Positions 18,565 through 47,295 of a DNA stretch of 64,000 nt are shown here, one piece after another. The notes beneath the pieces are model-generated. The model did no database searches, was not told where the DNA came from, and saw only the letters and a program-made list of their open reading frames with translations. How positions within the stretch are numbered: position 1 is the first letter of the stretch; each line of letters opens with the position of its first letter. The stretch comes from a virus. The stretch lies in IMG/VR virus record IMGVR_UViG_3300022744_000001, positions 194,022 to 258,021 of that record; one strand, given 5' to 3'. The translations under genes and the position numbers were made by a program.

Positions 18565-19500
18565 GTGACGGCGAAGAAACTGGACTATGAGGCGCTCAAG
18601 TCAACCATCAAGAAGGCGCCAAAAAAGGCCACAAAGAAGGCCAAAAGCGAACCCCCGGCCGAGCCAGCAGCACAGCCGTTCCTCAAGTGGGCAGGTGGAA
18701 AGCGGAAGTTGCTCAACCGCATCCTCCCCAAGGTACCGGCGAGCATTGACACGTACTACGAGCCATTCCTTGGAGGCGGTGCGGTCTTTTTCGCGCTCGT
18801 AGCTCGAGGGGTCAAGTTCAAGCGGGCCGTGCTCAACGACCTGAACACGGACCTCATGGAGACCTACCAGGTCATCCAATCAGAAGCCGTCCACGACCTC
18901 ATCGCACTGCTCCAGACGTACCAACACAGTCGGGAGTTCTACAACCATTTGCGCATGATCGTACCCAAGACGGTCAACTCCAAAATCGTTCGAGCGGCTC
19001 GATTCATCTACCTCAACAAGACCGGGTTCAACGGGCTCTACCGGGTTAACAAAAAGGGCGAGTTCAATGTGCCCTTCGGCAAGTACAAAGACCCGACCAT
19101 TTGCGACCAGGAGGGCCTCCTACGGGCGCACAAGGTGCTTCAAGGGGTCGAGCTAGTCTCGATGGATTTCGACGCTTGCCTCGCCCCCGCAGGGCCCCAG
19201 GACTTCGTTTACTTCGACCCGCCCTACCTCCCCATCAGCGAGACGAGCAGCTTCACAGCGTACACGTCTGGTGGGTTCCCCATCACCGAGCACCGACGAC
19301 TGGCTGAAACGTTCTTCTCCCTGGGCGAGAGAGGCACCAAGGTGGTCCTCTCCAACTCCATCGCCACCGCTGTCCGAAAGCTCTACACGCGGGAACCCGC
19401 GGTCGTTGAAGAGGTAGAAGCCCCCAGGTCTATCAACTCCAAGGGGGATAAACGAGGAAACGTTGGGGAACTGCTAGTTTCCATCGGGGTTAGCAGTTGA
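18565..19500 (+). CDS. dam: DNA adenine methyltransferase (Dam family, N6-adenine)
   Basis: It carries FLKWAGGKRKLL, YYEPFLGGGAVFF (motif I) and DPPY (motif IV). A lysine-rich N-terminal extension precedes them. Confidence 0.85.
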   Translation: MTAKKLDYEALKSTIKKAPKKATKKAKSEPPAEPAAQPFLKWAGGKRKLLNRILPKVPASIDTYYEPFLGGGAVFFALVARGVKFKRAVLNDLNTDLMETYQVIQSEAVHDLIALLQTYQHSREFYNHLRMIVPKTVNSKIVRAARFIYLNKTGFNGLYRVNKKGEFNVPFGKYKDPTICDQEGLLRAHKVLQGVELVSMDFDACLAPAGPQDFVYFDPPYLPISETSSFTAYTSGGFPITEHRRLAETFFSLGERGTKVVLSNSIATAVRKLYTREPAVVEEVEAPRSINSKGDKRGNVGELLVSIGVSS

Positions 19501-24793: not shown

Positions 24794-26020
24794 ATGGCAT
24801 ATGACCTGATCTGGAAAGCAGACGAAGCCCTCCCAAAACCCCAACCCGTTGCTGTCTGTGCGCGCGAACCTCTCCCCGATCGCACACGAAAAAGCATCTT
24901 CCTCGCAGGCCCGACGCCGCGAGACCAGAACACGCCGAGCTGGCGGCCCGAAGCTCTCCGCATCTTGGACAAGCTTGGGTATGACGGCTACGTCTTCATT
25001 CCCGAGGACCGTTCAGGTACCTTCTCCGGCGACTACACGGCACAGGTGGAGTGGGAGACGGCCGCGCTGAACGTGGCCGACATCATCGTCTTCTGGGTAC
25101 CTCGCGACATGAAGACCATGCCTGCCTTGACCACGAATGTCGAGTTCGGCATCTGGATGGATTCCGGCAAAGTCGTTTTGGGGGCGCCGGATTCAGCCGT
25201 GAAAAACACCTACCTCAAGTGGTGGGCGAGCAACCTGAAGGTACCTTTCTCCAACAGTCTCGAGACCACGCTGCAAGCGGCCATCGACGCCATTGGAGAC
25301 GGGGCTTCCCGCTGGGGTGGCGAAGCGCAAGTGCCGCTCCACATCTGGAAGCACCCGACCTTCCAAGGCTGGCTGCGAGCCCAGAAGGGGGCGGGCAACC
25401 GCCTCGATGGGGCCAAGGTCCTCTGGAGCTTCCGCGTAGGTCCAGAGCGCAAGAAGACGTTCGCTTGGGCCCTCCACGTGAACGTCTACGTGGCCTCCGA
25501 GGATCGAAACAAGACCAACGAGTTCGTGTTCGGTCGAGTCGATATCGCCTCTGTGGTCCTCTACCACCGAGACGACACGCACATGGACAAGGAGACCGAC
25601 GTGGACGTCATCCTGGTGCGTGAGTTCCGCTCCCCCGCACGTACGTCAGACGGGTTCATCGTCGAGCTGCCTGCGGGCAGCATCGAGAAGCTCGACCCCA
25701 AATCGGCCGCGCTGAAGGAGCTGGAGGAGGAGACCGGGGTCAAACTCGACCCGAACCGCCTTCGCCTGGTAGGTACCAAACAGGTGGCGGGTACCCTCTC
25801 TGCTCACACTTCGGTCGTTTACGCCGCCGCGATCGAATATGAGGAGTACGAAGAAATTCTCCGAACCATGGGAAAAGTCCGAGGGGTCGCTGAGGATACC
25901 GAGCGCACCACAATCACGGTAGACCGCCTCGACCATCTGCTCAGCGGAGCGAATGGTACCGAGGTAGATTGGGCGACCTTGGGGATGATCAGTGCCGCAG
26001 TTCTGACCCACAGTGATTGA
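24794..26020 (+). CDS. nucleoside 2-deoxyribosyltransferase-like domain fused to Nudix hydrolase
   Basis: The N-terminal half reads IFLAGP...TNVEFGIW, matching the NDT/SLOG fold. The C-terminal half carries the Nudix box ELPAGSIEKLDPKSAALKELEEETGV. Confidence 0.65.
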   Translation: MAYDLIWKADEALPKPQPVAVCAREPLPDRTRKSIFLAGPTPRDQNTPSWRPEALRILDKLGYDGYVFIPEDRSGTFSGDYTAQVEWETAALNVADIIVFWVPRDMKTMPALTTNVEFGIWMDSGKVVLGAPDSAVKNTYLKWWASNLKVPFSNSLETTLQAAIDAIGDGASRWGGEAQVPLHIWKHPTFQGWLRAQKGAGNRLDGAKVLWSFRVGPERKKTFAWALHVNVYVASEDRNKTNEFVFGRVDIASVVLYHRDDTHMDKETDVDVILVREFRSPARTSDGFIVELPAGSIEKLDPKSAALKELEEETGVKLDPNRLRLVGTKQVAGTLSAHTSVVYAAAIEYEEYEEILRTMGKVRGVAEDTERTTITVDRLDHLLSGANGTEVDWATLGMISAAVLTHSD

Positions 26021-26041
26021 GGACTGGTGTAGTACCCAGGC

Positions 26042-26905
26042 ATGAACGTCTATGGAATCTCAGGGCTGAAGGGTCACGGGAAAGACTCTCTTGCAAAAGC
26101 CATTCAAGGCGAGAGCGGGGACTTTCGTATCACTCACTTCGCGTTCGAGTTGAAGCGCCTCGGTGGGGTCATTTTCGGCCTCACCGATGCTCAGATGCAC
26201 GATCAGCTGTTGAAGGAGTTACCTCTCCCTGAGCCCGTCCACATGGACGAGTTTCTCCCGGCGATGCGCGAGCAGACGGGGCTGGACATTCAACCCGCGG
26301 AGAAGGTTGCCAACACCCCTCGAGAGGTTTTGCAGTACCTGGGTACCGAGTACGTTCGTCGAGCCAGACAGTCTTACTGGGTCGATTGCGTGCTCAAGGA
26401 AATCATGGACGTGGGGGACTTCTTCCTCGTCCCTGACACTCGGTACCCGAACGAGGCCGACGCGCTCCGGTCCATCGGAGGCAAGGTCATCAAGGTCAAG
26501 CGCATCGACATCCCTGAGCACACGGACGGGCACTCGAGCGAGACCGAGATGGCGAAGATCGACCCGGACCTGCTCCTGGGCACGGTTACCGGCGGGTTCG
26601 GGCTCCAATCCAAAGTGGCCGCGTTGATTGCTCGGGGCCAGTTCGAGGAGGCCAAGAAGTACGACTACCGCCGAATCGAACGAGCTTTGGCGGAGTTCAG
26701 GGCCGGTGGCACAACCCGGGACGTGGCCCATACGCTCGAGCTGCACCTGGTGGACGCAGAATTCGTTCTCGATTACTACAAAATCAACTGCAAACGGTGT
26801 CTTGGGTATCGACGGTTCATTGACGGCGAGCTAGACCGAGGCCAAGTTGGCTTCGAAATCATGTCCTGTCAGGACTGCAAGGTGATTGACCCACGGCTTT
26901 CATGA
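26042..26905 (+). CDS. deoxynucleoside monophosphate kinase (T4 gp1-like) with C-terminal zinc ribbon
   Basis: ISGLKGHGKDSLAKAI matches the T4 dNMP kinase LSGVKRSGKDTTADFI. C-terminal CKRC...CQDC. Confidence 0.6.
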   Translation: MNVYGISGLKGHGKDSLAKAIQGESGDFRITHFAFELKRLGGVIFGLTDAQMHDQLLKELPLPEPVHMDEFLPAMREQTGLDIQPAEKVANTPREVLQYLGTEYVRRARQSYWVDCVLKEIMDVGDFFLVPDTRYPNEADALRSIGGKVIKVKRIDIPEHTDGHSSETEMAKIDPDLLLGTVTGGFGLQSKVAALIARGQFEEAKKYDYRRIERALAEFRAGGTTRDVAHTLELHLVDAEFVLDYYKINCKRCLGYRRFIDGELDRGQVGFEIMSCQDCKVIDPRLS

Positions 26906-29269: not shown

Positions 29270-30070
29270 CTACTCGTTAGGTTCACTACCCTTCGGAGTT
29301 TCCGCTTCAGAGGCGGGAACCTCGGGAATGATCGGGAGCGGAACATCACTTGGGGGCGGGATTTCGATGCTGGGGTCCCCAGGCATGACCGGCTGCCTCT
29401 CCGCTGCTTCTTGCCTTTGAGCTTTTTCCTGCTCACGTAGGTAGTCCATCAGTTCCACAATGGAGTTGAACGACATCCCGTTGTCGGGCGGGAAGGATGA
29501 CCGCGTTGCGGGCTCGGGAGCCTCCTTGGTGGGTTCTGGCCGACGCTCCTTGTGTGCCATCCGATGAGGTCGCACAGCCTTCTCCAAAGGCTCGTCATAC
29601 TCCAGCAAAGCACGGGGTTTACCGCCCACCATCTCGTAATGCTCGGAATATAGCGGCTTGAAGTCGCCATAAAAGATCGCTGTCACAAGCTTTTCGCTGT
29701 CACCAGTATACGGCGGCGGATTGCGGTCAATGCGCTTGGGTTTCCACCCGTAAGGGATTTCGATAGGGTCCAGGTTCCCCTTGGGCTTGAGCCATCCGAT
29801 CTTCACCGCATGGTCGAGATACGGATTGGTTTTTGGTATGACCGTGATTTCTTGTCCCACCTTGATGAAGTGGTGACTGATGGCGTTCGGAGTCGGGCAG
29901 TAAAAGCTCTTCTTTGCAACGTAGAGGTTATCCGGCTCCGGTGTTTGTGCTGGAGGCAGACTGCGACGAGCGAAGCCGCGATTATTCCAAGCCTTGCGTG
30001 CTCGCATGAAGCCGTAGACAGCCAAAGCGGATAGCGTCACGCCGATGATGGTCTCGATCATAGAGCACAT
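29270..30070 (-). CDS. membrane-anchored protein adjacent to endolysin (possible lysis accessory)
   Basis: N-terminal TM helix. The C-terminus is Pro/Glu-rich. Confidence 0.45.
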   Translation of the reverse strand: MCSMIETIIGVTLSALAVYGFMRARKAWNNRGFARRSLPPAQTPEPDNLYVAKKSFYCPTPNAISHHFIKVGQEITVIPKTNPYLDHAVKIGWLKPKGNLDPIEIPYGWKPKRIDRNPPPYTGDSEKLVTAIFYGDFKPLYSEHYEMVGGKPRALLEYDEPLEKAVRPHRMAHKERRPEPTKEAPEPATRSSFPPDNGMSFNSIVELMDYLREQEKAQRQEAAERQPVMPGDPSIEIPPPSDVPLPIIPEVPASEAETPKGSEPNE

Positions 30071-30132
30071 CTACACCGATCCTCACCGCTACCAAAAAAC
30101 TGGTTAAGGCACTCATACCCCGGTGTACTGAG

Positions 30133-30173
30133 GACCATGGTCATCGTGACCATGGTTATCGGAACCATGGTCC
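30133..30173 (+). promoter_or_regulatory. three tandem 15-bp units each containing the palindrome (G)ACCATGGT(C); candidate operator array
   Basis: ACCATGGT occurs at 30134, 30149 and 30164 with exact 15-bp spacing, directly upstream of the NAD-operon regulator. Confidence 0.4.
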
Positions 30174-30943
30174 TCAACACCAGGGTAGTCATGTATCGTT
30201 ACAAATATCCGCGACCGTCGGTTGCTGTGGATCTCGTCACCTTTGGGTACGACGCGACCCAGGCAGAGATCAGTGTCCTACTCATCAAGCGCAAGCACGA
30301 TCCCTTCGAAGGGAAATGGGCCTTGCCTGGGGGGTTTGTCGAGGTTGGAACCGAGGACGATTTCTCGGGGTCAAAGCCTTCGAACTACGGGGAGTCGCTC
30401 GAGGACGCTGCGCGTCGTGAGCTGAAGGAGGAGACTGGGGCGGAGCCCGAGTACATCGAACAGCTCGGGACGTTCGGGGACCCCAATCGTGATCCTCGCG
30501 GGCGAGTCATCTCGGTCGCCTACCTCAGCCTCGTGCGCTCCAAGGACCTCACTGTCAAAGCCAGCTCGGATGCAGCCGAGGCGGTGTGGTGGCCTTTGAA
30601 GTCTGCCCTTCGCCAGAAGTTCGCCTTCGACCACAACACCATCCTGAATCAGGCCGTAACTCGACTTCACTCAAAGGTTCGGTACGCGCCAATCGGGTTC
30701 AACCTTCTCCCGCAGAAGTTCACCTTGCACGAGCTGCAAGAACTCTACGAGGCGCTTCTCTTGCGCCAGCTCGATAAGAGCAACTTCCGAAGGAAAGTGC
30801 TCTCCGTGGGGATTCTGGCCGAGGCCGGTCAACGCGTCCACGGGAAGCAAACCGTCCAACTCTACCGATTCGACAAGCGCGCCTACGACAAGGTCAGCGC
30901 TGCTGGCTTCAATTTCGAACCCAAGTTCGTGAAGGGGAAATGA
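30137..30943 (+). CDS. Nudix hydrolase domain + C-terminal winged-helix (NrtR-like ADP-ribose-responsive regulator)
   Basis: Nudix box GGFVEVGTEDDFSGSKPSNYGESLEDAARRELKEETG. C-terminal FTLHELQELYEALL...DKSNFRRKVL resembles the NrtR wHTH. The real start is probably the ATG at 30191. Confidence 0.6.
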   Translation: MVIVTMVIGTMVLNTRVVMYRYKYPRPSVAVDLVTFGYDATQAEISVLLIKRKHDPFEGKWALPGGFVEVGTEDDFSGSKPSNYGESLEDAARRELKEETGAEPEYIEQLGTFGDPNRDPRGRVISVAYLSLVRSKDLTVKASSDAAEAVWWPLKSALRQKFAFDHNTILNQAVTRLHSKVRYAPIGFNLLPQKFTLHELQELYEALLLRQLDKSNFRRKVLSVGILAEAGQRVHGKQTVQLYRFDKRAYDKVSAAGFNFEPKFVKGK

Positions 30944-32355
30944 TCATGCTTCGACCCAACCTCGCACTCAACACCGACTCCTACAAGCTCTCGCACCCGT
31001 GGCAATACCCTGACGGGCTCGAGTACATGCAGTCCTATTTCGAAAGCCGTGGTGGCCTCTTCGGAAAGACCATGAGCCTTGGCTACCAGGGGTTGGCCAA
31101 GACCAACCTGCTCGACCCGGTCACCAAGGACGACGTGGAGGAAGCCAAGGAGGTCGCGGAGGCCCATGGCGAACCTTTCGAGTACGGCGGCTGGATGCGC
31201 ATTGTGGACAAGTTCGAGGGCAAGCCCCCCATCCGCATCTTGGCCGTGCCCGAAGGTACTATGGTCCCGACGCACAACTTGCTGATGCGGGTGGAGTCCA
31301 TGGACAAGGAAACGGCGTGGCTCCCCGGGCACGTCGAGTCCATGTTGGTCCGCCTTTGGTACCCGCAGACGGTCGCGACTCTCTCGCACTACATCAAGCG
31401 GGACATTCTCGAGGCCCTGATCAAGTCGTCCAACGACCCCTGGGGGGAGATCCTCTTCAAGCTGCATGACTTCGGGGCTCGAGGGTGCAGCTCGCTCGAG
31501 ACGGCGGGTATCGGCGGTATGGCGCACCTGGTCAATTTCCAGGGCACCGACACCATCGAGGCTCTTCGCTACGTCCGGAAATACTACGGCGAGTCGATGG
31601 CGGGGTTCTCCATCCCCGCGGCGGAGCACTCGACCATCACGAGCTGGGGCCGGGAGAACGAACTCCTCGCCTACCGGAACATGGTCAAGCAGTTCGCGAA
31701 GCCCGGCAAGTTCGTGGCGTGTGTCTCGGACAGCTACGACATCTACAACGCGGTTCGTCTCTGGGGCAGTGAACTCCGCGAAGAGGTCAAGGCCAGCGGC
31801 GGCACCCTGGTCATTCGTCCTGACTCCGGCATCCCCGTCGAGGTGGTCATGAAGTGCCTCCGCATCCTGGAAGACCAGGTGGGCATGACCAAGAACATGA
31901 AGGGGTACAAGGTCCTCCCGTCCTACTTCCGCCTGATCCAGGGTGACGGGGTCAACCGCGACTCCATCCGCGAAATCCTCGCCGAGATGCTCGCGAACGG
32001 CTACTCGGCGAGCAACATCGCCTTCGGCATGGGTGGCGGCCTCCTGCAACAGGTCAACCGCGACACCCAGAAGTACGCCTACAAGTGCTCGCAGGTCATC
32101 ATCAACGGGCAGCCCCGTCGCGTCTTCAAAGACCCGGTCACGGACCAGGGCAAGAAGTCGAAGGCAGGCAACTTGGACATCGTGTTCGAGAACGGGCAGT
32201 TCAAGACCATCGAACTCGAGCCCGGCACCTCTCTCAGCCGCAACACGGCACTCAAGCCCATCTACGAAATGGGCAAACTCTTGGTAGATGAAAAGTTCTC
32301 CGACGTGCGGAAGCGTGCTGACAGCGACCTCGTCGAAGGCTACGGAAGGGCATGA
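30940..32355 (+). CDS. nadV: nicotinamide phosphoribosyltransferase (NadV/Nampt)
   Basis: LALNTDSYKLSHPWQYPDG...YFESRGG matches the NAMPT N-terminus. 471 aa, ATGA-coupled to its neighbours. Confidence 0.85.
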   Translation: MIMLRPNLALNTDSYKLSHPWQYPDGLEYMQSYFESRGGLFGKTMSLGYQGLAKTNLLDPVTKDDVEEAKEVAEAHGEPFEYGGWMRIVDKFEGKPPIRILAVPEGTMVPTHNLLMRVESMDKETAWLPGHVESMLVRLWYPQTVATLSHYIKRDILEALIKSSNDPWGEILFKLHDFGARGCSSLETAGIGGMAHLVNFQGTDTIEALRYVRKYYGESMAGFSIPAAEHSTITSWGRENELLAYRNMVKQFAKPGKFVACVSDSYDIYNAVRLWGSELREEVKASGGTLVIRPDSGIPVEVVMKCLRILEDQVGMTKNMKGYKVLPSYFRLIQGDGVNRDSIREILAEMLANGYSASNIAFGMGGGLLQQVNRDTQKYAYKCSQVIINGQPRRVFKDPVTDQGKKSKAGNLDIVFENGQFKTIELEPGTSLSRNTALKPIYEMGKLLVDEKFSDVRKRADSDLVEGYGRA

Positions 32356-33449
32356 CCATGATCACGAATCAACCAGCTGCTGTTTTGCTCAACCACGCGC
32401 CGTTGCGGGTTGCCATCGCGGCTTCGGGGGCCGGAGCAGGACTCCAGAAAACCCTCTGGGACGTTCCCGGCATCTCCGCGGTCTTGGTCGAGGCTTCCTT
32501 CCCCTATGCGATGGAGGCGACTGACCAGTTCCTGCGGTTCAAGCCTGACCGGTATTGCTCGGCTTGCACTGCCGTCGAGATGGCCATGGAGTGCTACTAC
32601 CGGGCATTCCAGTACAACGGCCCCCGGGCCATCGGGGTTGGGCTCAGTGCCTCGGTGGCATCCCTAAAAGCCCACCGGGGCGAGCACCGGGTCTTTGCGG
32701 CGTCCTTCTCGGACAAGGGGTGCCGGGTCTACGAACGAGTGCTGGAGAAGACCAACGAACCGGCAACCCTCGCTCGTGTGCTTGACGGGGCGGTGGCCGA
32801 CGCCATGGGCCTTCTGGCGCTCCTGGAGGCCGTAGGAGCGGCGATGGACAACGCCCCCGAGGCAACCGACTATGACGGGGCGGCCCTCGCTCACGAGGCG
32901 TTCTGGGCCCGTCCTGTGTTCACCAAGACCGGGCAGCGGGTGACCGAGGCTGAGGCCGAGGTGGAAGCGATCTTCCCCGGGGCCTTCAACCCGCCCCATC
33001 ACGGGCACTTTGGGATGGCCCACAACTTCCAAGGGTATACTCGGATCAGCCCCACCTTTCATGTCACGGCGGAGACGCCCCACAAGCCCCCGCTTTCCGT
33101 GGCAGAGATGCTGCAACGAGCCAAGATGCTTGAGGGGCACCACCGGATGTTCACCCGGAACGACCCCCTGTACGTGGACAAGGCGGCCAAGTTCCCCGGG
33201 CGTCCGATCCTCGTCGGGTCGGATGCGCTCGAGCGCCTGCTCGACCCCAAGTGGGGGCCAACCCCAGAAGAGCTGGGCTCCACATTCGAGGAGCATGGGA
33301 CGGTTTTCTACGTCCCTGAAACCCGGGTCGTGAACGGCCGCGAAGTGAAGCTCGAGGACCTGACCCTACCCAAAGGCTTGAGGGTGATTCGACTCCCTGG
33401 CCGTTGGGATGTCAGCTCCTCCGAGCTTCGCGCTACTTCCGCCGCTTAG
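32352..33449 (+). CDS. CinA-C/PncC-like domain fused to nicotinamide/nicotinate mononucleotide adenylyltransferase (NMNAT)
   Basis: The C-terminal GAFNPPHHGH...VSSSELRA matches NadD motifs. The N-terminal LWDVPGISAVLVEASFPYAME...ACTAVEMAMEC...GVGLSASVAS aligns with the CinA C-terminal (NMN deamidase) fold, but the ESCTGG motif is replaced by ASGAGAG. Confidence 0.65.
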   Translation: MTMITNQPAAVLLNHAPLRVAIAASGAGAGLQKTLWDVPGISAVLVEASFPYAMEATDQFLRFKPDRYCSACTAVEMAMECYYRAFQYNGPRAIGVGLSASVASLKAHRGEHRVFAASFSDKGCRVYERVLEKTNEPATLARVLDGAVADAMGLLALLEAVGAAMDNAPEATDYDGAALAHEAFWARPVFTKTGQRVTEAEAEVEAIFPGAFNPPHHGHFGMAHNFQGYTRISPTFHVTAETPHKPPLSVAEMLQRAKMLEGHHRMFTRNDPLYVDKAAKFPGRPILVGSDALERLLDPKWGPTPEELGSTFEEHGTVFYVPETRVVNGREVKLEDLTLPKGLRVIRLPGRWDVSSSELRATSAA

Positions 33450-35205: not shown

Positions 35206-35772
35206 ATGGGGTTGGAACCGGAGATCGACATCGACGCTTACTGGAGTGACTTGCGGTCACCGCAAGATCCCACCCTTGAGAGGGTTCTGACTTGGGTACC
35301 CACGGAGCAACCTTTGCTGGACGTGAATTCCCTTTCAGGGGTGCTCCCAGCTTTGCGCCAGAGGGGTGACTCCCTCGTTTGGACTCTCGGGCAACACCAA
35401 GCTCTGCTACAGGATGTGGTCGGGGCTCTTTTGCGAAAACTACCCCCGCGAGCCTGGTCGTTCACCAACATGCCCTCTGACGTAGGGTCTTACCCCAAGC
35501 TCTACCAGTATGTCATGGAGGTCAAGTTCTGCCTGGTAGAGGGTTTGCCTTCTGCACTCGAACAAGCTCGGGGGGTCCTGGAGACCCACCTGCAAGAGAA
35601 CCTGCGGGAGGCCCTCGTTTTCTATCAATGGTGTCACGCCAATGAGCACGTCCCTCGGGCGATTCTCGTATTCGACGCCTGGAACCATGCGTCGGCAAAT
35701 GAGCATGCAGATGTGACAAGCATCCTCACCTATGCTGGCCCCGCCATAGGGGTACTCCGAGGGAACTCATGA
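35206..35772 (+). CDS. hypothetical protein
   Basis: 188 aa. Confidence 0.45.
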   Translation: MGLEPEIDIDAYWSDLRSPQDPTLERVLTWVPTEQPLLDVNSLSGVLPALRQRGDSLVWTLGQHQALLQDVVGALLRKLPPRAWSFTNMPSDVGSYPKLYQYVMEVKFCLVEGLPSALEQARGVLETHLQENLREALVFYQWCHANEHVPRAILVFDAWNHASANEHADVTSILTYAGPAIGVLRGNS

Positions 35773-36110
35773 GCCGCCACGCATTTGCAGACGTCCTGAA
35801 GGAGGCGCGGATTGCCAGAGGTCTCAGTCTGCGGGCTTTCGCTTCCGAGATCGGGTACTCCGCCCCTTACATCCACGACGTGGAGAGCGGCCGTCGCAAC
35901 CCTCTTTCCGACGATGTTCTGCCGAAAGTGGCCGAGGTCTTGCGAATCAGCCTGACCGACTTACGCAGAGCCGCCGCCACAAGTCGTCATGGGGGATTCC
36001 TGCTTCCGCTGGCATCCGAACGTCATGACAACGTGGCGGCTATCCTGGCCCGCAGGTGGAAGAAGCTCGAGCCGGAGCAGCTGGAAGCCGTCCTCGAAGC
36101 TATCAGTTGA
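35769..36110 (+). CDS. XRE-family HTH transcriptional regulator
   Basis: ARGLSLRAFASEIGYSAPYIHDVESGRRNP is a classic HTH_XRE. Confidence 0.7.
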   Translation: MSRHAFADVLKEARIARGLSLRAFASEIGYSAPYIHDVESGRRNPLSDDVLPKVAEVLRISLTDLRRAAATSRHGGFLLPLASERHDNVAAILARRWKKLEPEQLEAVLEAIS

Positions 36111-36744
36111 GGCCGGTGGGAGGGGCACTCGAACCCGGGCCTTGGTCCTGGCCGGGAATGCGCCGAATGCCCATGATCATCATCCTCCCCGCTGCCTCGT
36201 GCTGGGAGTGGCTGTCCACCTGCAAAACGACATTGACCACGGTGCGACCCAGCCGCATCCAGGCTTGCTCGAGCGCCTTAACCCCCTCGTTGACGTCGTG
36301 GACCAATGAGTGCATCTCCTCGGAGATTTCGCAGTTCGAATCGTGCAGCAGCTCCACAAACAAGGACGCGATATCGATCAACAGGTCGTGTCGCTCCTCG
36401 GGGGAAGCCCCGCTGAACTTGCGCACGCTTTCGAGCAGGTCCGGGGACGTGAACAGGTCGTCCTTGTGGATGCGCCCACAAGCCCCGCATACCTCACTGG
36501 GAGGGGCCCCTTTACTCCGCCAGATGCTGGCCGCAGATGTCACCACCTCCGAAACGGTCTCCTCCCCACGACGGGAGACAACCACTGTGACGACGGGGGC
36601 CCAACCAGTTTTGGACTGCGCGAGCTTGATGTCCTTGATCGTGCCCTCAATCCGCAATCCGCCCGCATCTGTTTCTACTTCTGCCCCAATCGCGAGATCT
36701 TGTTCTGCCATGTTTTCTCCGTGACAATCGTACACCGGAATCAA
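36103..36744 (-). CDS. hypothetical protein
   Basis: 213 aa. Confidence 0.4.
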   Translation of the reverse strand: MIPVYDCHGENMAEQDLAIGAEVETDAGGLRIEGTIKDIKLAQSKTGWAPVVTVVVSRRGEETVSEVVTSAASIWRSKGAPPSEVCGACGRIHKDDLFTSPDLLESVRKFSGASPEERHDLLIDIASLFVELLHDSNCEISEEMHSLVHDVNEGVKALEQAWMRLGRTVVNVVLQVDSHSQHEAAGRMMIMGIRRIPGQDQGPGSSAPPTGLN

Positions 36745-37445
36745 CGGCGTCTCGTTTTCTTGCGCTTCGACGTTTCCGCTTCCCTTGCGGCCGTGACCAG
36801 ACGAGCTTGGTCTTGACGAGCTTGGTCTTGCTCTTCCGCCTCTTTGGCCGCGACGATGGCGGCCCGGTTCATGTGAGCGCGGTCCATCGCCTCGTCGCCC
36901 GTGATTCGCTCATAGGGGACCTTGTTGTCCCGAAGAGCCCGGACACGTTCGATCTCGTCCTCCGAATGAACCGTTCCGCCCGCGTTCAAGTCGATGTACC
37001 AGGAGTACACGTCGTTGATCGTCTTGAGTTCGTTCACGTGCCACCGGAAGCGGCACTGCATGATGTCGAACCCGTCCGTGTACTCCCGATGGTAGTGGCC
37101 GAACGCTTTGATCTCGTTGCTCAGGTAGCCAATGACTGCATCAATACGCTGCTTGCCGTCCACGAGCACGTACCAGCACTTTGGGTCGTTTTTGTCCACG
37201 AACCCCTGCCACGTGGGGCAGTTCGTGTAGATGTCCTTGCCCGACTTGCCGCCGCTCAGGATGTACTCGACGAACCGAGTTTTCTGCGCCTCTGTCCAGA
37301 CGTTCCCTCGCTGGAAGTTGGGGTTGACGTCCAGGCCGTAGTCCATCACCTGGCTGTAGTAGTATTTCGCAAGGTAGTTCCACCCCACGTCAACGGCGTA
37401 CAGCCCGGCACTGGGGGTCATCTGGGGGATATCACGATAGCGCAT
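36741..37445 (-). CDS. DUF262 (ParB-like nuclease domain, DGQQR motif) protein
   Basis: NFQRGNVWTEAQKTRFVEYIL...LVDGKQRIDAV. A 15-bp tandem repeat (QDQAR x2) sits in the C-terminal coding region. Confidence 0.6.
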   Translation of the reverse strand: MRYRDIPQMTPSAGLYAVDVGWNYLAKYYYSQVMDYGLDVNPNFQRGNVWTEAQKTRFVEYILSGGKSGKDIYTNCPTWQGFVDKNDPKCWYVLVDGKQRIDAVIGYLSNEIKAFGHYHREYTDGFDIMQCRFRWHVNELKTINDVYSWYIDLNAGGTVHSEDEIERVRALRDNKVPYERITGDEAMDRAHMNRAAIVAAKEAEEQDQARQDQARLVTAAREAETSKRKKTRRR

Positions 37446-37484: not shown

Positions 37485-37985
37485 CTATACCGCTTTGAAG
37501 CTCTGCGCCTTCTTTTGAAGGGCTTCGGCCACAATCGGGTGGACATAATAGCTCACGTCCGCGCCCCAGCTCGCCAGCTCTTTGACGTTCGTGGAACTCA
37601 CGAACGACTGTTCCGGTTGGGTCATCAGGAAGATCGTGTCGATGCTCGGGCAAAGCTGGCGGTTCACATGCGCGATCCCCATCTCAGCCTCAAAGTCGGC
37701 GATGGCGCGCAGCCCACGAATGATGGTTTTGGCCCCTACCTGCTTGCAGAAGTCCACAAGAAGGCCGCGGAAAGGCATCACCGTGACCTTGGGGATTTTC
37801 TCGGCCACAAAAACCTGGGTGATGAGTCGAACGCGCTCCTCTTCGTCGAAGAACGGCTTTTTCTTGGAATTCATCAGAACCCCGATCACCAACTCGTCCG
37901 CGATCTCAAGACCTCGCGTAGCGATGTTGAAGTGTCCGTTGGTGAACGGGTCGAAACTGCCTGCGTAAGCCGCGATCTTCGTCAT
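37485..37985 (-). CDS. coaD: phosphopantetheine adenylyltransferase (CoaD/PPAT)
   Basis: AYAGSFDPFTNGHFNI, IRGLRAIADFEAEMGIAHVNR and IFLMTQPEQSFVSSTNVKE align closely with E. coli CoaD along its whole length. Confidence 0.85.
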   Translation of the reverse strand: MTKIAAYAGSFDPFTNGHFNIATRGLEIADELVIGVLMNSKKKPFFDEEERVRLITQVFVAEKIPKVTVMPFRGLLVDFCKQVGAKTIIRGLRAIADFEAEMGIAHVNRQLCPSIDTIFLMTQPEQSFVSSTNVKELASWGADVSYYVHPIVAEALQKKAQSFKAV

Positions 37986-39504: not shown

Positions 39505-40062
39505 ATGAGCTTCATTGGCATCAAAGTGCCTCACGAGGTCGGTCGTTTGCTTCACACCATAGAGGTACCGGGCGAAAAGGTACCTCTCCACGAGTTCCAC
39601 GTGACCCTCCTCTACCTGGGCAAAGAAGTGCCCATTGAAACCTTGGGCAAGGCCATCGTGGCCGCGGCCGAAGTCGCGGAGTCGTACCGCCCCTTCCGTT
39701 GCACGCTCACGCAAACCAGCTCTTTCCCCAAAGGCGATGACGGGGTACCCATCATCTGTCCTGTGGACAGCCCCGAACTCCACGAACTCAATACGCAGCT
39801 CAAAGCAGCTTTTGACGCGGCGGGAGTGGACTACTCGAAAAAGTTCCCCGACTACAAACCGCACGTGACGTTGGCCTACTCCGACGAGGTCACAGCGGAC
39901 ACGCTGTTCGGACCACTCGAGTGGTCCGCCTACGAGATGGTGCTCTGGGGCGGGGACGCGGGGGATGAGCGTCTTGCCACCAACTTCCCATTTGCCTTGC
40001 CCACGACGGTAGCCACGAACCAGCAGCTCGTACGCCTCGCCATGGCGATGAAGAAGAGCTAG
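39505..40062 (+). CDS. 2H phosphoesterase superfamily protein (LigT-like)
   Basis: Two H-x-T-x motifs are present: FHVTLLYLG and PHVTLAYS. 185 aa. Confidence 0.65.
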   Translation: MSFIGIKVPHEVGRLLHTIEVPGEKVPLHEFHVTLLYLGKEVPIETLGKAIVAAAEVAESYRPFRCTLTQTSSFPKGDDGVPIICPVDSPELHELNTQLKAAFDAAGVDYSKKFPDYKPHVTLAYSDEVTADTLFGPLEWSAYEMVLWGGDAGDERLATNFPFALPTTVATNQQLVRLAMAMKKS

Positions 40063-40891: not shown

Positions 40892-42322
40892 TCAATCCTC
40901 GTCGTCTTCGTCCTCATCTTCGTCGTCGTCTTCATCCTCGTCTTCGTCGTCGTCCTCTTCGTCGTCCGAGTTATCCTCGTCGTCGTAGTCGTTGCCTTCG
41001 TCCTCGTCGCCCTCTTCGTCGGCGTCCTCGTCGCCTTCGGCTTCCTCTTCCTTGTCCTCCTCGATTTCGTTGTACTTGAAGAAATCGTAGACCTGGGAAA
41101 GGGTCATGGGCTGATTGAACTCGGCTTCGTCGCCCTCGGAGAGGCGGGCGTAAACTTCCTGCGCCCTCTCCACGCTCAGCGGTCCGATGTAAACCTGCTT
41201 CGACAAACGACCCGTGCGAAGCAGCGCGTCGTCGATCTCCTGCATCTTGGCGTTTGTGGTGCAGATGATACGAAGGTTCAAGGCGCTACCCAAGATACCA
41301 TCGCTTGCATTGAGTAGGGCGGAGATGGCTGCCAGGTTGGCCTCATCGTTGTCCACCACTGGGCCCACCGTTTTGAGAAGTGCGTTTTGCGCATCGATGA
41401 GGATGGTCGCCACTTCAGGGGTCAACATTTGCTTGGCAAGAAGGCCGCCGATGAGGTCGAACAGCTTCTGGAACTCCTTGACCAACGAGGATTCCTTTTT
41501 GCGAGGAACCAGCGCTCGGTCGGCATCCTCGATGAGAAGCACGATGGGCTTTTCGACCCCAATCATGCTGCGAGCACGGATGAGGGTAGGTACGAGGTTC
41601 GGACCGGCCAAGTGCTCGACCATGCCCGCCGGGATCAGAACGAACACGGCGTCGTAGACCTCGTGCAAGAGGCCCCGGATGAAGAACGTTTTGCCGGTGC
41701 CCGGTTCGCCCTGAATGATGACCAAACGGCCGATGGGGGTGGCGCGTTGCAGGTCGTCCACGATGAAGTCGAAAGCATCGACCACATCGGCTTCGTAGTT
41801 GTCACGCTCGATGGGAACGCCCGCAAGGCCCACTTCACCGATCTCGATGCCGTTGGCCCCCTGGGCAAGGGAGTAGATGGGCTGGCGAACGAACTCGGGC
41901 AACAGATGGTCCCCGAGACGCTTGTTGACGTCCTCGAACGTCTTCCGGTTCGTGGAGACCACGCGGATGTCGTATTTGTTATCCAGACCGGTGTGGATTT
42001 TGACGGCGCCCTCTGGCCAGAAAAGCCAGGTTTCACTCGTGCCACGCCCGAAGATGGGCACATCTGCGAACGGAGAGCGGGCTCCCGTGATAGATGCGAT
42101 GGCCTCGAAGAGCTTCTCCTGCCCCTGCTCGTCGGACTCCTCGATCAGCACTCCACGGCACCCACCCGAGAACACGGTGAGGTTGTTTGCGACAGCATGG
42201 TCAACGAGCATCGTCGCCGCAGGCCCATACTCCTCCAGCACCAGTTTCCCTGGAGCCCACCAATCCAACTTGGGAGGCTCTTTCGGCGGCTCGCGTCGGC
42301 TCTTGTCGTTCTTGGTTGCCAT
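40892..42322 (-). CDS. classic AAA-family ATPase with poly-acidic C-terminal tail
   Basis: Walker A IIQGEPGTGKTF, Walker B VLLIEDAD, sensor-1 CTTN and SRH ALLRTGRL are all present. About 70 C-terminal residues are almost entirely D/E. Start taken at MATKNDK (42322). Confidence 0.7.
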   Translation of the reverse strand: MATKNDKSRREPPKEPPKLDWWAPGKLVLEEYGPAATMLVDHAVANNLTVFSGGCRGVLIEESDEQGQEKLFEAIASITGARSPFADVPIFGRGTSETWLFWPEGAVKIHTGLDNKYDIRVVSTNRKTFEDVNKRLGDHLLPEFVRQPIYSLAQGANGIEIGEVGLAGVPIERDNYEADVVDAFDFIVDDLQRATPIGRLVIIQGEPGTGKTFFIRGLLHEVYDAVFVLIPAGMVEHLAGPNLVPTLIRARSMIGVEKPIVLLIEDADRALVPRKKESSLVKEFQKLFDLIGGLLAKQMLTPEVATILIDAQNALLKTVGPVVDNDEANLAAISALLNASDGILGSALNLRIICTTNAKMQEIDDALLRTGRLSKQVYIGPLSVERAQEVYARLSEGDEAEFNQPMTLSQVYDFFKYNEIEEDKEEEAEGDEDADEEGDEDEGNDYDDEDNSDDEEDDDEDEDEDDDEDEDEDDED

Positions 42323-42504
42323 GATTTTCTCTTCTTTTCGTCTCCGGAGGCGTCGAGCCTCCCGCCTTCCCGTACACCAATCACATGCTGAACTTGGGCT
42401 TTTGCCCGCATTCGCCTCAAAAAAGCCACGAAACGGCAGCGGAGCCGGTAGGTTTGCGCTGGGAAATCCCCGAGCTGAGCTAAACCGCCCTTGGCTAAGT
42501 TGAG

Positions 42505-42735
42505 CTATTTGCTGGGTTTCGGTTCTGAATTTGGGAAAATGGAAGCAATGAGGCAGCCCAAGTGATAGGGCACTTCCCGGTCTTCCTCTTTGGTGGCCGC
42601 CGCGAAGGGCAGAACTACGCCCCGGTCTCCATGGCGTATCGGTTCTTGGCACGCAAAACAGGGTTTTGACGGGGTGGACACTTGCTGCCCGGTTTCACAC
42701 ACCCCTGCCTTCCACGGCGGCCCGAACCACTTCAT
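42505..42735 (-). CDS. possible small Cys/His protein in long divergent intergenic region
   Basis: 76 aa ORF (CFACQ...HLGC). Weak support. Confidence 0.2.
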   Translation of the reverse strand: MKWFGPPWKAGVCETGQQVSTPSKPCFACQEPIRHGDRGVVLPFAAATKEEDREVPYHLGCLIASIFPNSEPKPSK

Positions 42736-43804: not shown

Positions 43805-46042
43805 CTACTCAGCGGCTTCGGCGAAGTTCCCCGGACCAACAAGACCAACCAAGTGCTGACGCGCGACCCGGTACGTGTTCTTCGCGGTCTGGATCTCGGC
43901 CCGAATGGCCGCGCTCTCGAGGTTGCGATCAATGGTGTTGATGAGGTCGTCGGGGGTGATTTCAATGCCGTTCTCCCGCAACATGCGCTCGAGCTTGGCC
44001 TGACGCTCGAGCGAGAACTTGGAGCGGTCAAACTTCGTCCCCTCCTCCTGCAAGAACTTCACGACCTCTTGAGCCTTCTCTGGCCTGCGGTTCACGAAGT
44101 TGCGCATGTTCTTGCGCCAGAGGTCGTCGGCCATCTTGCGCACGGTGTCGCCCACGGCCCCCTCGAGTTTGGTTGAAGCATCGGTCCATGCCACGTCCGA
44201 GAAATTCGGGGACAGGGGCAAGTACGACAAGGAGCGGCGGAGCAGCTTCACACGGTCCACATGAGCCAGCTCGCCCACCAGAAGGACCTTGGCGAAGCGG
44301 CGGATGATGGGCATGGACATGCGCTCGGGATGGTTCGTCGCGCCCCACACGGAGATACCCGAGTAGGAGAGCACGCCGTCCATGAGAATCTGGAACTCGG
44401 TTGTGAGGTTCGTACCCCCGAACGCTTCGTGTCCCTGATTGCCGTTGAGCACCGTGTCGATCTCGTCGATGGAGATGAACGCTTGGCGCTCGGTCTCCTT
44501 GTGGAGCTGCAAGGCAGCCTCGAACAGGCGCTTGGGGTTCTTCTCGGCCTCACCCTTCCAGCAGGTGAGGAAGTCGGAGCCCTGGGCGAAGATGGTGAGC
44601 GCATTCCTCTCGCTGCTGATGGCTCGGAGAGCCTCGGTCTTGCCACACCCCATGGGGCCGACCAAGAGCACGTTGCTCTTGTCGGTCTTGCCGCTCGGGC
44701 TCGTGGCCCGGAAAAGGTCGGCGTACATGGACGAGTCCTTCGCCTGCTCGACCATCTCCCGAACTTCGTCGAAGCCCGACCCCACCAGGTCCCCGAGCGA
44801 GACCTTGGGCTTGAGGCCCGGGATGACCTCGAGCGCTCCAGGGGCCTCCCCCAGGAAGGAGTTGCCCGCCCCCACCTTGCACACGTAGAACGAGTTCTCG
44901 TCCCGGTGGATCTTGTACCACTGGGCCTTGCGTGCGAGCACGAACTTCACGATTTCCTGCCCGCTCTTCTCAGTGAGGAGTAGGCCCGAGATGGTCGAAA
45001 TCGTCTCGTTGCGGAAGTCGATCTCCATCTGCTCTTCGGGACTCTTGAGGCCAACCTTGTCCCTCTCCCGAACGTTGCGGGGGTCAAGCTCGCTGACCGA
45101 ACGGAGAGCCTCTTTGAACTCCGACTCATTCATGAGGCGGCGCGGGGGCTTGCCTCCAGTCACGCGGCGGATCTTCTCGGCCGCCGTGTGAATCTTGGCC
45201 TCGATTTTCTCCGCCCCTTCCCACATGGAGGTGAGGTTTTCGGAAAGGAAGTCGATGATTTCCCCGGGCTCCTTCACGAACCCGCCGAAGAGGCCACCAC
45301 AGAGGGCGTCGGCCAGGATCGTGGCCTTGCGCTGGGTGTAAACGCTGATCTCGTCCGGCTTCTTGCCGTCCTGGATTTCACCATGCGCGTCCGCGTTCTC
45401 GTAGATGGAGATGGCCAGGTCCGTACGAACGGGGTCACCGTGAATTTTGATGCCTTCCACGCTGTGCCGGTGTCGAAGCATCTTGTGGTACATCTCGAGG
45501 TGGAAAACCACGCCTCGAGCAATAGACACCACCAGGTTTTGCAGGACAGCGGCGTTCTCAACCCCTTCCACGAAGCGCTGCAAAGGCTCCTGGTTCATCT
45601 GCACCAGAAGCACGAACGCTTGCAGCTCCTCTCGGGTCGTCGGGGGTTTGACGTCGCCGAAGAGCATGAGGTTCATGGGTTGAATCGCATGCACCGTGTC
45701 GCGGAGCGCGTGAAATCCGTTCTGAATTGCCCGGGAGATGCTGAGGATGAGCGCCACGAAGTTGCCTGCGCCCATCGTGTGCTTGAACTGCTGAAACCAG
45801 TCCTCTTGCTGGTTCATGTCGAAGGGGTTCTTCGTTCTGAGCGAGTTCTTGGCCTCTGCGACCATCGCGCTGTAGGTGTCCCCGATCTCCTCGACGCGCT
45901 CATCGAATTCTTCGCACAACTTGTCGAGGAAAGCCCCGGTTTCACGAAGGCCGTCGTAGTCGAAGTCCAACACCAGGCCCACGAGATCCGTGAACTGGGC
46001 CGGAGTGATAGATACTTTGGAAACCATTTTGTCGATGTACAT
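43805..46042 (-). CDS. large classic AAA-family ATPase with about 480 aa unique N-terminal region
   Basis: Walker A VLLVGPMGCGKTE, Walker B FISIDEIDTV and sensor-1 GATNHPERM are present. Start uncertain: the track's extreme end (46075) would be TTG; the first in-frame ATG is at 46042, with another at 46027. Confidence 0.65.
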   Translation of the reverse strand: MYIDKMVSKVSITPAQFTDLVGLVLDFDYDGLRETGAFLDKLCEEFDERVEEIGDTYSAMVAEAKNSLRTKNPFDMNQQEDWFQQFKHTMGAGNFVALILSISRAIQNGFHALRDTVHAIQPMNLMLFGDVKPPTTREELQAFVLLVQMNQEPLQRFVEGVENAAVLQNLVVSIARGVVFHLEMYHKMLRHRHSVEGIKIHGDPVRTDLAISIYENADAHGEIQDGKKPDEISVYTQRKATILADALCGGLFGGFVKEPGEIIDFLSENLTSMWEGAEKIEAKIHTAAEKIRRVTGGKPPRRLMNESEFKEALRSVSELDPRNVRERDKVGLKSPEEQMEIDFRNETISTISGLLLTEKSGQEIVKFVLARKAQWYKIHRDENSFYVCKVGAGNSFLGEAPGALEVIPGLKPKVSLGDLVGSGFDEVREMVEQAKDSSMYADLFRATSPSGKTDKSNVLLVGPMGCGKTEALRAISSERNALTIFAQGSDFLTCWKGEAEKNPKRLFEAALQLHKETERQAFISIDEIDTVLNGNQGHEAFGGTNLTTEFQILMDGVLSYSGISVWGATNHPERMSMPIIRRFAKVLLVGELAHVDRVKLLRRSLSYLPLSPNFSDVAWTDASTKLEGAVGDTVRKMADDLWRKNMRNFVNRRPEKAQEVVKFLQEEGTKFDRSKFSLERQAKLERMLRENGIEITPDDLINTIDRNLESAAIRAEIQTAKNTYRVARQHLVGLVGPGNFAEAAE

Positions 46043-46074
46043 GGCCAACCAGTACACCGGCAGGTGTAAAGGCA

Positions 46075-47295
46075 ATGCACATGGACCAGTTTGTTCGGCG
46101 AAAATTAACCGAGCTGAAACCCCACCCTAAGAACGACGCATTCTTCCATGACCTGCGCCTATCCCCTAAATACCCGCTTGTACGGGAACAGGTTTGCAGT
46201 GGCGAGATCCAAAACCCGCTCACTGTCCTGTCGGACGGCACGGTTGTATCGGGCCACCTTCACTATCTAGCCGCTCTTGAGCTTGAGGTAGAGGAAGCTC
46301 CCATTCAGCTTTACGAGGGGAACTGGAACGAGGTGCACGAGCTGGAGTTCTTGCTCCAAGCGAACGCCCAACTCGGGTACCTGGGGTTCGAACAGATAGC
46401 GATCGCGTACTCTCTCCTTTTGGGAGGGGCGATTGAGAAGCCCAAGGACGCCAGCAAAGGCGGGCGGCCGAAGAAGGGGGCTGCCCCATCTCCGGAACGG
46501 CGACAAAGCACCAAAGAGCGGGTAGCGCGGCTCCTGGGGGTTTCTGCGAAAACCGCAGAGCACTTGCACCTGATCTACCTGACGCCCGGGGTCCCTGCGG
46601 ACATTCACGACGCTGTTGAAAACCGAATGGTCCCCATCGCCCTCGCGGCGGATGCGGTGCAGTTCAGCATCCATGAGGCCCTTCGACGCAACCCTCACAC
46701 GAAATTCGTCGTGGTGGACCCGATTGACGTGCGTACGTACATCGAGACGCCCCCAAACAAACGACGCACGAAAATGGTGGACCTGCTCAAGGGCAAGCGT
46801 CCCCGCCCCCTCCCTCCCGTCATGCTCGAGGGGAAAGAAGTTGCTGACTACCACAAGCGGGTCTTTTCTTCGGTCCCGCCCCCCTTCCATCCAAAGCAGA
46901 GCGTGCAGAGCATGATTCGAGACGGGGTCCACTGGGATGATCTCGAGGTGCCAGACAACGACATCCCGCTTCACGAGGCCATTGGGCGCATTCGGGCTCG
47001 ACTCAGCAAGGCTTTCGAGGCCCCCGTCCTGGTACACGAGGACAAGGTCGAGGAGGCCCTAAACTCGCTCCTTTTGGAAGTTGCGCGGCTCATGAAGTCG
47101 CACCACGGCAAGGAAGTCTCGGTCCGCATCGGGAGCGCTCCAGTAGCCCCCAAACCGCGCCCCAAAGCCACCGTGAAACCCAAGGCAGAGTCAAAGCCCC
47201 CTTCGAAGCCCCCGGCCCCCACCGTCTTCGCTACCGAGGTCGAGTTCATCGTCTCCTTGCTCGGGCTGGAGACCGTCCAGGCACTAGGGCGCTAG
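46075..47295 (+). CDS. ParB N-terminal-domain-like protein
   Basis: LKPHPKNDAFFHDL...LTVLSDGTVVSGHLHYLAA resembles the ParB/Srx fold with its GxxR-type motif. Confidence 0.5.
   Translation: MHMDQFVRRKLTELKPHPKNDAFFHDLRLSPKYPLVREQVCSGEIQNPLTVLSDGTVVSGHLHYLAALELEVEEAPIQLYEGNWNEVHELEFLLQANAQLGYLGFEQIAIAYSLLLGGAIEKPKDASKGGRPKKGAAPSPERRQSTKERVARLLGVSAKTAEHLHLIYLTPGVPADIHDAVENRMVPIALAADAVQFSIHEALRRNPHTKFVVVDPIDVRTYIETPPNKRRTKMVDLLKGKRPRPLPPVMLEGKEVADYHKRVFSSVPPPFHPKQSVQSMIRDGVHWDDLEVPDNDIPLHEAIGRIRARLSKAFEAPVLVHEDKVEEALNSLLLEVARLMKSHHGKEVSVRIGSAPVAPKPRPKATVKPKAESKPPSKPPAPTVFATEVEFIVSLLGLETVQALGR

Follow-up and report, generated by a model that had tools for sequence, protein, structure and literature searches.

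A candidate array of four overlapping NrtR-type operators at the head of a large-phage NAD operon

The NAD operon and its genomic context

The window considered here, a 64,000-nucleotide stretch of viral DNA, contains a three-gene NAD operon that is headed by the gene for an NrtR-like protein and continues with a Nampt (NadV) gene and a third gene of composite architecture (Table 1). The start of the Nampt gene overlaps the stop codon of nrtR, and the linkage of these two genes recurs both in syntenic relatives and in relatives from IMG/VR. As a single sequence gene 3 stays below the Pfam cut-offs; its homologues carry PF01467 and PF02464, and a profile of the family matches NadD in the PDB (1.8e-8 over ~56 residues). 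The AF2 model (pLDDT 92) combines a CinA/PncC-like N-terminal half with a nucleotidyltransferase C-terminal half, and Foldseek retrieves CinA (8.5e-7) and PPAT (4e-3). Judging from these profiles and the model, gene 3 probably provides the Nmnat step. The gene on the other side of nrtR is divergent, heads a cassette with the genes for an endolysin (PG_binding_1 and Peptidase_M15_4) and a DUF1003 protein, and bounds a 120-bp regulatory region between the two divergent genes, within which the repeat array described below is located.

The surroundings point to a phage. Neighbouring genes encode a deoxynucleotide monophosphate kinase, an Acb1-like phosphoesterase, a GmrSD_N protein, an AlkB-like protein and the endolysin, the strong PHROG matches include phrog_2426 (595 bits) and phrog_4339 (316 bits), the source contig extends up to 448 kb, and the nrtR-Nampt relatives reside on IMG/VR contigs of 128-512 kb. 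That the source is a large phage is well supported, although the window alone falls short of proof because no structural hallmark gene was found within it.

Several further genes of the window are worth recording. The Acb1-like gene (39505-40062, plus strand), whose product matches the Pfam Acb1 and 2H phosphoesterase families, is located ~6 kb from the NAD operon; Acb1 is an anti-CBASS enzyme, and this may therefore be a second counter-defence gene. A 166-aa protein encoded on the minus strand (37485-37985) matches the CoaD (phosphopantetheine adenylyltransferase) equivalog at 179 bits, well above the cut-off, and a CoaD-like coenzyme A pathway gene is unusual for a phage. Positions 24794-26905 (plus strand) encode a 408-aa fusion of a nucleoside 2-deoxyribosyltransferase-like and a NUDIX domain, followed by the deoxynucleotide monophosphate kinase, and both adjoin the lysis genes in all syntenic relatives. 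Just 3' of the NAD operon lie an HTH_3/HTH_31 regulator (35769-36110, plus strand) and the GmrSD_N protein (36741-37445, minus strand), which are both kept in the syntenic locus L003. A ClpX-like ATPase with a zinc finger (58453-59733) and two more large AAA+ proteins (40892-42652 and 43805-46075), all on the minus strand, are encoded in one 20-kb stretch.

Table 1. Genes and candidate regulatory elements of the NAD operon region (positions in the window)
Feature	Position	Strand	Description
Divergent gene	29270..30070	-	266 aa; hydrophobic N-terminus; no Pfam match
Conserved 5' block	30093..30129	+	A-tract, TGGTTAAG, ~15 nt, CGGTGTACT; columns invariant across six loci
Candidate operator O1	30120..30140		CCGGTGTACTGAGGACCATGG; GT-N7-AC core 30125-30135; dyad 30130
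Candidate operator O2	30135..30155		CCATGGT-CATCGTG-ACCATGG; dyad 30145; 7+7 arms perfectly complementary
Candidate operator O3	30150..30170		CCATGGT-TATCGGA-ACCATGG; dyad 30160; 7+7 arms perfectly complementary
Candidate operator O4	30165..30185		CCATGGT-CCTCAAC-ACCAGGG; dyad 30175; TGGT-N7-ACCA match
nrtR-like gene	30191..30943	+	250 aa; Nudix domain and NrtR winged helix
Nampt (NadV)	30940..32355	+	PF18127 and PF04095; NF006629 at 585 bits vs 405-bit cut-off
Gene 3	32352..33449	+	365 aa; N-terminal CinA/PncC-like fold, C-terminal NadD-like adenylyltransferase

The NrtR-like protein and its start codon

A first-pass annotation of this DNA had likened the first gene product to NrtR, and the domain searches agree. 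A Nudix domain (PF00293, 75.2 bits, residues 25-152) is followed by an NrtR winged helix (PF21906, NrtR_WHD, 69.4 bits, residues 169-227), and the PDB yields full-length matches to BtAraR (5bs6, 1e-36), which is the best, and to SoNrtR (3gz5, 8e-33). The Nudix box E-x7-REUxEExGU is intact, and it is invariant in the clade. The protein also aligns over its full length with NF050029, the 'ADPR responsive transcriptional repressor NtrR', at 172.3 bits (E 1.2e-50), which does not reach the equivalog cut-off of 400; by its sequence it is a relative of this family, not the equivalog itself.

The public gene call (P0001) places the start at 30137, the first ATG within the array, and arrives at a protein of 268 aa. 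The three ATGs in the array that the first-pass annotation had pointed out (30137, 30152 and 30167) are all in frame with this call, and its preference for the ATG at 30191, 18 bp past the array, agrees with the comparative evidence: homologues measure 240-257 aa and their alignment begins at M-x-Y-x-Y-P-R-P, and in L003 an in-frame TGA precedes the ATG by two codons. Position 30191 is therefore the real start and the repeats are, as a consequence, non-coding. On the same homologue evidence the public call is 18 codons too long.

A palindromic repeat array with a 15-bp period

The sequence from 30120 to 30190 reads ccggtgtactgagGACCATGGTCATCGTGACCATGGTTATCGGAACCATGGTCCTCAACACCAGGGTAGTC and is followed by the ATG at 30191. 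Read directly, the octamer ACCATGGT occupies 30134-30141, 30149-30156 and 30164-30171 at a spacing of exactly 15 bp, which confirms the unit positions 30134, 30149 and 30164 given earlier. The accompanying description of a triplicated 10-bp palindrome holds for the three octamers and for their spacing, whereas the full 10 bp (GACCATGGTC) is present in unit 1 only, units 2 and 3 being GACCATGGTT and AACCATGGTC. A degenerate fourth unit, ACCAGGGT at 30179-30186, is in register with the 15-bp period. Repeat finding delineates three direct 23-nt copies (100, 87 and 78% identity) and a perfect 13-nt inverted repeat, TGAGGACCATGGT / ACCATGGTCCTCA at 30129-30141 / 30164-30176, and the array as a whole is symmetric about 30152.5. 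The three octamers of the array are the only copies in the 64-kb window, where 0.65 are expected by chance, and a count of three was reached in two of 100 shuffles. Restriction-site avoidance was considered and rejected, since CCATGG is over-represented in the window (37 copies vs 19 expected). The window also encodes a D12-class N6-adenine DNA methyltransferase (18565-19500, plus strand, 201 bits); if its target were CATG, the operator junctions of this phage would be methylated.

Operator register

Rodionov et al. (2008, PMC2330246) defined the operators of NrtR as palindromes of 21 bp that share a conserved GT-N7-AC core and are found either over the promoter or on the stretch from the promoter to the start codon. 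Four sites at 30120-30185 match this published definition, and the array consists of four overlapping 21-bp palindromes that are candidate NrtR-type operators (O1 to O4, Table 1). They follow the form nnnTGGT-nnTSAnn-ACCAnnn; from dyad to dyad the distance is 15 bp, neighbours overlap by 6 bp, and the ACCA half-site of an operator is directly followed by the TGGT half-site of its neighbour, each junction being ACCATGGT. All three occurrences of TGGT-N7-ACCA in the window fall in the array. With a weight matrix derived from 14 sites in relatives, those of the window being excluded, the four sites take ranks 1-4 among the positions of the 64 kb (O4, 21.3 bits; O1, 20.6; O2, 16.8; O3, 15.6). The fifth-ranked position reaches 13.8 bits, which is within the range of shuffled copies (their best scores average 13.6 and never exceed 17.4 bits), and no further strong operator was found in the window outside 30120-30185. 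O4, the best-scoring site, ends 5 bp before the start codon. The second-best score, that of O1, is partly due to shared ancestry with the first sites of the relatives; the left half of O1 has the ancestral GTGT form, and six clade loci have the block CGGTGTAcT without any change.

These six syntenic loci (the window, L003, L005, L006, L008 and L010), in which the flanking genes are the same, encode NrtR proteins that are 60-67% identical, and each of them has two to four GT-N7-AC sites directly 5' of the nrtR ATG. The sites recur with a period of 15 bp in the window, L003, L005 and L010 and of 20 bp in L006 and L008. Conserved across the six loci is GGT-N7-ACC with T-S-A at the centre of the spacer, whereas the dinucleotide at the junction varies among the relatives (CA, TA, TT, CG, AC, CT), usually with loss of symmetry; the junction positions carry ~0.3 bit of information, compared with 1.2-1.3 bit for the T and A in the middle of N7. 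The conservation of GGT, ACC and T-S-A, together with the variable junction bases, places the dyads between the palindromes of the first-pass annotation and makes the sites four in number, not three. Its binding unit, the ACCATGGT palindrome, is accordingly not supported, while its broader proposal of an operator array for a dimeric HTH protein is very probably correct; the homologous operons in which it suggested looking for such arrays do carry comparable ones. In L010 the three-site array (1606-1652) forms a 47-bp near-perfect palindrome, GGTGTACTCAGGACTATAGT-CATCAAC-ACCATAGTCCTGAGTACACC, an array-level symmetry that exceeds the need of separate operators.

The tight packing is a local peculiarity. 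Distant nrtR-Nampt loci from IMG/VR jumbo contigs and metagenomes (NrtR 46-58% identical) have two tAGTGT-N7-ACACTa sites at -37/-38 and -14, 23-24 bp apart, and among the Bacteroidota homologues there are many with just one site, at -15 to -21. In a survey of ~150 loci the overlapping 15-bp spacing was confined to the phage clade of the window, the relatives outside it having either a spacing of 21-24 bp or a single site; the window thus does not match the canonical tandem layout, in which non-overlapping 21-bp sites follow each other at ~24 bp from centre to centre. The closest bacterial NrtRs belong to Myxococcota and Planctomycota MAGs, where nrtR is mostly found inside operons and no GGT-N7-ACC was found directly upstream of it. 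An alignment-based scan recovered the nrtR-Nampt relatives in IMG/VR; the scan with a single protein as query had found none, and a scan of IMG/VR for three GGT-N7-ACC at 15-bp spacing returned 59 loci, all of which were tandem repeats in coding sequence and none of which was close to nrtR or Nampt.

Recognition helix and half-site co-variation

The structure of BtAraR bound to DNA offers a template for the recognition of such sites. Its helix D178-K179-R180-N181-F-R183-K184 reads GTGT-N7-ACAC, with D178, N181 and K184 contacting the GT/AC core, K179 contacting the outer G, and R180 intercalating at the T|G step (PMC4666351). The corresponding helix of the window protein is D195 K196 S197 N198 F R200 R201. 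Four of the contact positions (D195, K196, N198 and R201) are kept, and the position of R180 is taken by S197, as it is by a serine throughout the window's clade. We scored ~60 loci with a recognisable site by the residue at this position: with Arg, 131 of 136 half-sites are G[T/C]GT, and with Ser, 20 of 22 are nGGT, a co-variation behind which there are few independent lineages, given that most of the Ser/Gly types cluster in one viral subclade of the neighbour-joining tree. The two Ser exceptions are the ancestral-looking O1 left halves of the window and L003. The same contrast is seen between sister loci, L098 having Arg and GTGT and L104 having Ser and nGGT. Because Arg goes with G[T/C]GT and Ser with nGGT, it is very probably the cognate NrtR-like protein that reads the candidate sites, and the pattern indicates a change of DNA specificity in this phage lineage.

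The promoter region

As the upstream gene is divergent, the promoter of the operon must fall within 30071-30190, and the conserved 5' block (Table 1) is the only candidate promoter region. A sigma-70 scan found no promoter in this region of the window, nor 5' of nrtR in L173, L174 and L203; in some relatives a TTGACx can be seen by eye just 5' of the distal site, without an acceptable -10 element. A search for AAAAANTNGTTAA as a phage promoter motif found no recurrence. The exact 10-mer of O1, CGGTGTACTG, recurs once (46050-46059, minus strand), 10 nt 5' of an ATG. At the other end of the intergenic region TACACC (30072-30077; GGTGTA on the minus strand) precedes the ATG of the divergent gene by 10 nt, without variation among the six clade loci. 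TACACC and the recurrence of CGGTGTACTG could represent a phage promoter or initiation element, or be due to chance.

Alternative readings of the array

We consider it likely that the array represents four tandem overlapping operators of the NrtR-type repressor that is encoded immediately downstream. A protein might also bind the same DNA in the register of the first-pass annotation, each 8-10-bp ACCATGGT receiving one dimer and the three dimers being centred on 30137.5, 30152.5 and 30167.5, in a manner comparable to the MetJ met-boxes, which are arrays of short palindromic boxes. The octamer is indeed a perfect palindrome three times over and the array is symmetric about the middle copy, but the mostly non-palindromic junctions of the relatives and their low information content speak against this register, and so does the geometry of the family: the recognition helices of NrtR proteins are ~11 bp apart (27-mer positions 7-10 and 18-21), so that an NrtR-family dimer cannot read a 4+4 palindrome. 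We regard such a register as very unlikely. There is an equally slim chance that the sites serve another regulator, either a host NrtR or the HTH_3/HTH_31 protein of the window, instead of the adjacent phage NrtR. The GTGT left half of O1, the ancestral form used by Arg-type NrtRs, would suit a host protein, and the phage NrtR is not yet present at infection; the co-variation described above nevertheless ties the sites to the helix of the adjacent protein, and the sites accompany nrtR in genomes of very different kinds.

Other explanations look for the function of the repeats in RNA or protein. The nested palindromes may form a long hairpin in the 5'-UTR that controls the translation of the operon or the stability of its mRNA, a role that would be compatible with DNA binding and is not exclusive of it. 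For the segment 30118-30200 the predicted folding energy is -39.8 kcal/mol (z = -4.7), which none of the shuffled sequences equals, and the near-perfect palindrome of L010 points in the same direction. Strong RNA folding is, however, expected of any tandem palindromic operator array; the predicted fold leaves the GGGUAGUCAUG ribosome-binding region and the start codon unpaired, the consensus fold of the six loci retains a single-operator hairpin only (covariation term -0.58), relatives with sites 20-24 bp apart are without the long hairpin, and the 5' arm may be untranscribed, which together make an RNA role unlikely. It is more improbable still, to the point that we give it almost no credence, that the repeats encode MVIVT-MVIGT-MVLNT as an N-terminal extension of the 268-aa protein of the public gene call. 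The reading frame is open from 30137, 15 bp correspond to five codons, and a GGT...ACC periodicity of 15 bp usually marked a coding repeat in the IMG/VR scan; yet the homologues, with their lengths and their common first methionine, and the stop codon of L003 contradict such an extension, and the number of repeats varies among relatives that share the same protein N-terminus.

Proposed mechanism and geometry

With the array taken as four operators of the adjacent repressor, repressor dimers would coat ~30120-30185, the promoter-proximal half of the 120-bp gap, up to the ribosome-binding site, and the bound dimers would silence nrtR, Nampt and the CinA-like/adenylyltransferase gene, a case of negative autoregulation. 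If the characterised NrtR proteins are a guide, the DNA would be released once ADP-ribose or a close derivative binds to the Nudix domain; release of NrtR from DNA by ADP-ribose has been published for the Synechocystis and Shewanella proteins (PMC2330246). Genes for NARP2-like rebuilding of NAD+ would in this way be switched on while NAD+ is being cleaved, for instance by host NADase defence effectors. Since the Nudix catalytic box is intact, the NrtR-like protein may also hydrolyse its own inducer and thereby reset the switch; activity goes together with an intact box in NuhA, though this does not hold for the two tested NrtRs. Release by ADP-ribose and a role in counter-defence are plausible by this analogy, with the qualification that BtAraR, the best relative in the PDB, senses arabinose and that belonging to the family does not by itself establish ADPR as the effector.

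The 15-bp period poses a geometric question. Counted from the dyad, BtAraR contacts bases ±4 to ±7 in the major groove and, with its wing, ±8, ±9 and ±12 in the minor groove (PMC4666351). For the next dimer, 15 bp further on, this would put the wing at +3, +6 and +7 and the helix at +8 to +11. The two neighbours would then be ~154 degrees apart, on nearly opposite faces of the DNA, and the recognition helix of one and the wing of the other would lie in opposite grooves of the same base pairs. Occupancy would then be either fully interdigitated or alternating, with O1+O3 or O2+O4 filled at a distance of 30 bp. Judging from the BtAraR contacts, full interdigitated occupancy is conceivable; as BtAraR covers 25 bp and known tandem sites are ~24 bp apart, four dimers at 15-bp intervals may clash.

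A rationale for a sensor comes from the costs of NARP2, which is reported to consume PRPP, to overproduce NAD+ even without a defence system, to be toxic when cloned in E. coli and to have been unregulated in the tested phage (bioRxiv 10.1101/2024.02.11.579819). A more far-reaching scenario, which we put forward as speculative and rather doubtful, would make the jumbo-phage NrtR an ADP-ribose-sensing and possibly ADP-ribose-hydrolysing repressor at the centre of an inducible, damage-sensing counter-defence. Its re-tuning from Arg/GTGT to Ser/nGGT could insulate it from host NrtR regulons, the four interdigitated operators at 15 bp could yield a steep, cooperative switch, and induction would occur only once a host NADase defence (TIR, SIR2 or SEFIR effectors) cleaves NAD+.

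Relation to known systems

Neither NrtR operators nor NAD salvage by phages is new in itself. Bacterial examples of the former include nadM-nadV and nadE in Synechocystis and the tandem sites of prs-nadV in Shewanella oneidensis (PMC2330246). The phage locus is akin to these in its Nudix and winged-helix regulator and in its 21-bp GT-N7-AC palindromes, which in bacteria may also be in tandem and are located at the promoter of NAD salvage genes, nadV among them, or just 3' of it. It departs from them in being carried by a large phage, in the nGGT half-site vs GTGT and in the 6-bp overlap of four sites, and the window protein has an intact Nudix catalytic box, unlike the two tested NrtRs, which are inactive. 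BtAraR, the arabinose repressor of Bacteroides thetaiotaomicron, shares with the window protein the helix pattern D-K-x-N-F-R-K. The tandem 21-bp sites to which BtAraR binds precede an operon of which the BtAraR gene is part, an arrangement that the candidate sites of the window would share; the BtAraR sites are 3 bp apart (24-bp period) and a dimer covers 25 bp (PMC4666351), compared with the 15-bp period of the window. BtAraR moreover has the intercalating Arg180, reads GTGT, responds to L-arabinose and has a degenerate Nudix box, where the window protein has Ser and an intact box and its candidate sites have nGGT.

On the phage side the operon is reminiscent of NARP2 in Vibrio phage KVP40, with a phage Nampt gene next to an adenylyltransferase gene and a presumed function in rebuilding NAD+ after depletion. 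No regulator has been described for NARP2, whereas the operon of the window is headed by a predicted repressor gene with candidate operators, and its adenylyltransferase is fused to a CinA/PncC-like domain, not to a Nudix domain of the NadM type. Among cultured phages only Bacillus phage G encodes a full-length relative of the regulator, the NrtR-like gp273 (NC_023719, 'MutT/NUDIX hydrolase'), with 35% identity over residues 5-227. The cluster that gp273 heads (NC_023719 200123-206236) also encodes a PncA-like gp275 (isochorismatase), a PncB-like gp277, a KptA-like gp280 and a NadD-like gp281, and represents, unlike the window, a nicotinate (PncA/PncB) route; the recognition helix of gp273 is E-R-P-N-F, and no GT-N7-AC array is evident in the AT-rich region 5' of its gene. 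In full-text literature searches we found no account of an NrtR that is encoded by a phage and controls NAD genes or salvage of that phage. In a broad survey of viral NAD-ADPr systems, the Nudix domains of phages are mostly placed in NudE-like and NadM-like clades. The phage context, the overlapping four-site array with its 15-bp period and the Ser/nGGT specificity appear to be new.

Implications

The locus can be regarded as a natural experiment in the co-evolution of a repressor and its operators, in which Arg has given way to Ser together with the replacement of GTGT by nGGT. The overlapping 15-bp packing is unusual for a winged-helix dimer, considering that a relative covers 25 bp. With Bacillus phage G, a comparable gene cluster is available in a phage that can be cultured. 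The reconstitution of NAD+ by phages is a recently recognised escape from NAD+-depleting immunity. If the phage repressor senses ADP-ribose, the direct product of NADases, this would explain how large phages can afford such a costly pathway, and, if true, it would be a clear case of a virus that senses the damage done by immunity and not the immune proteins themselves.
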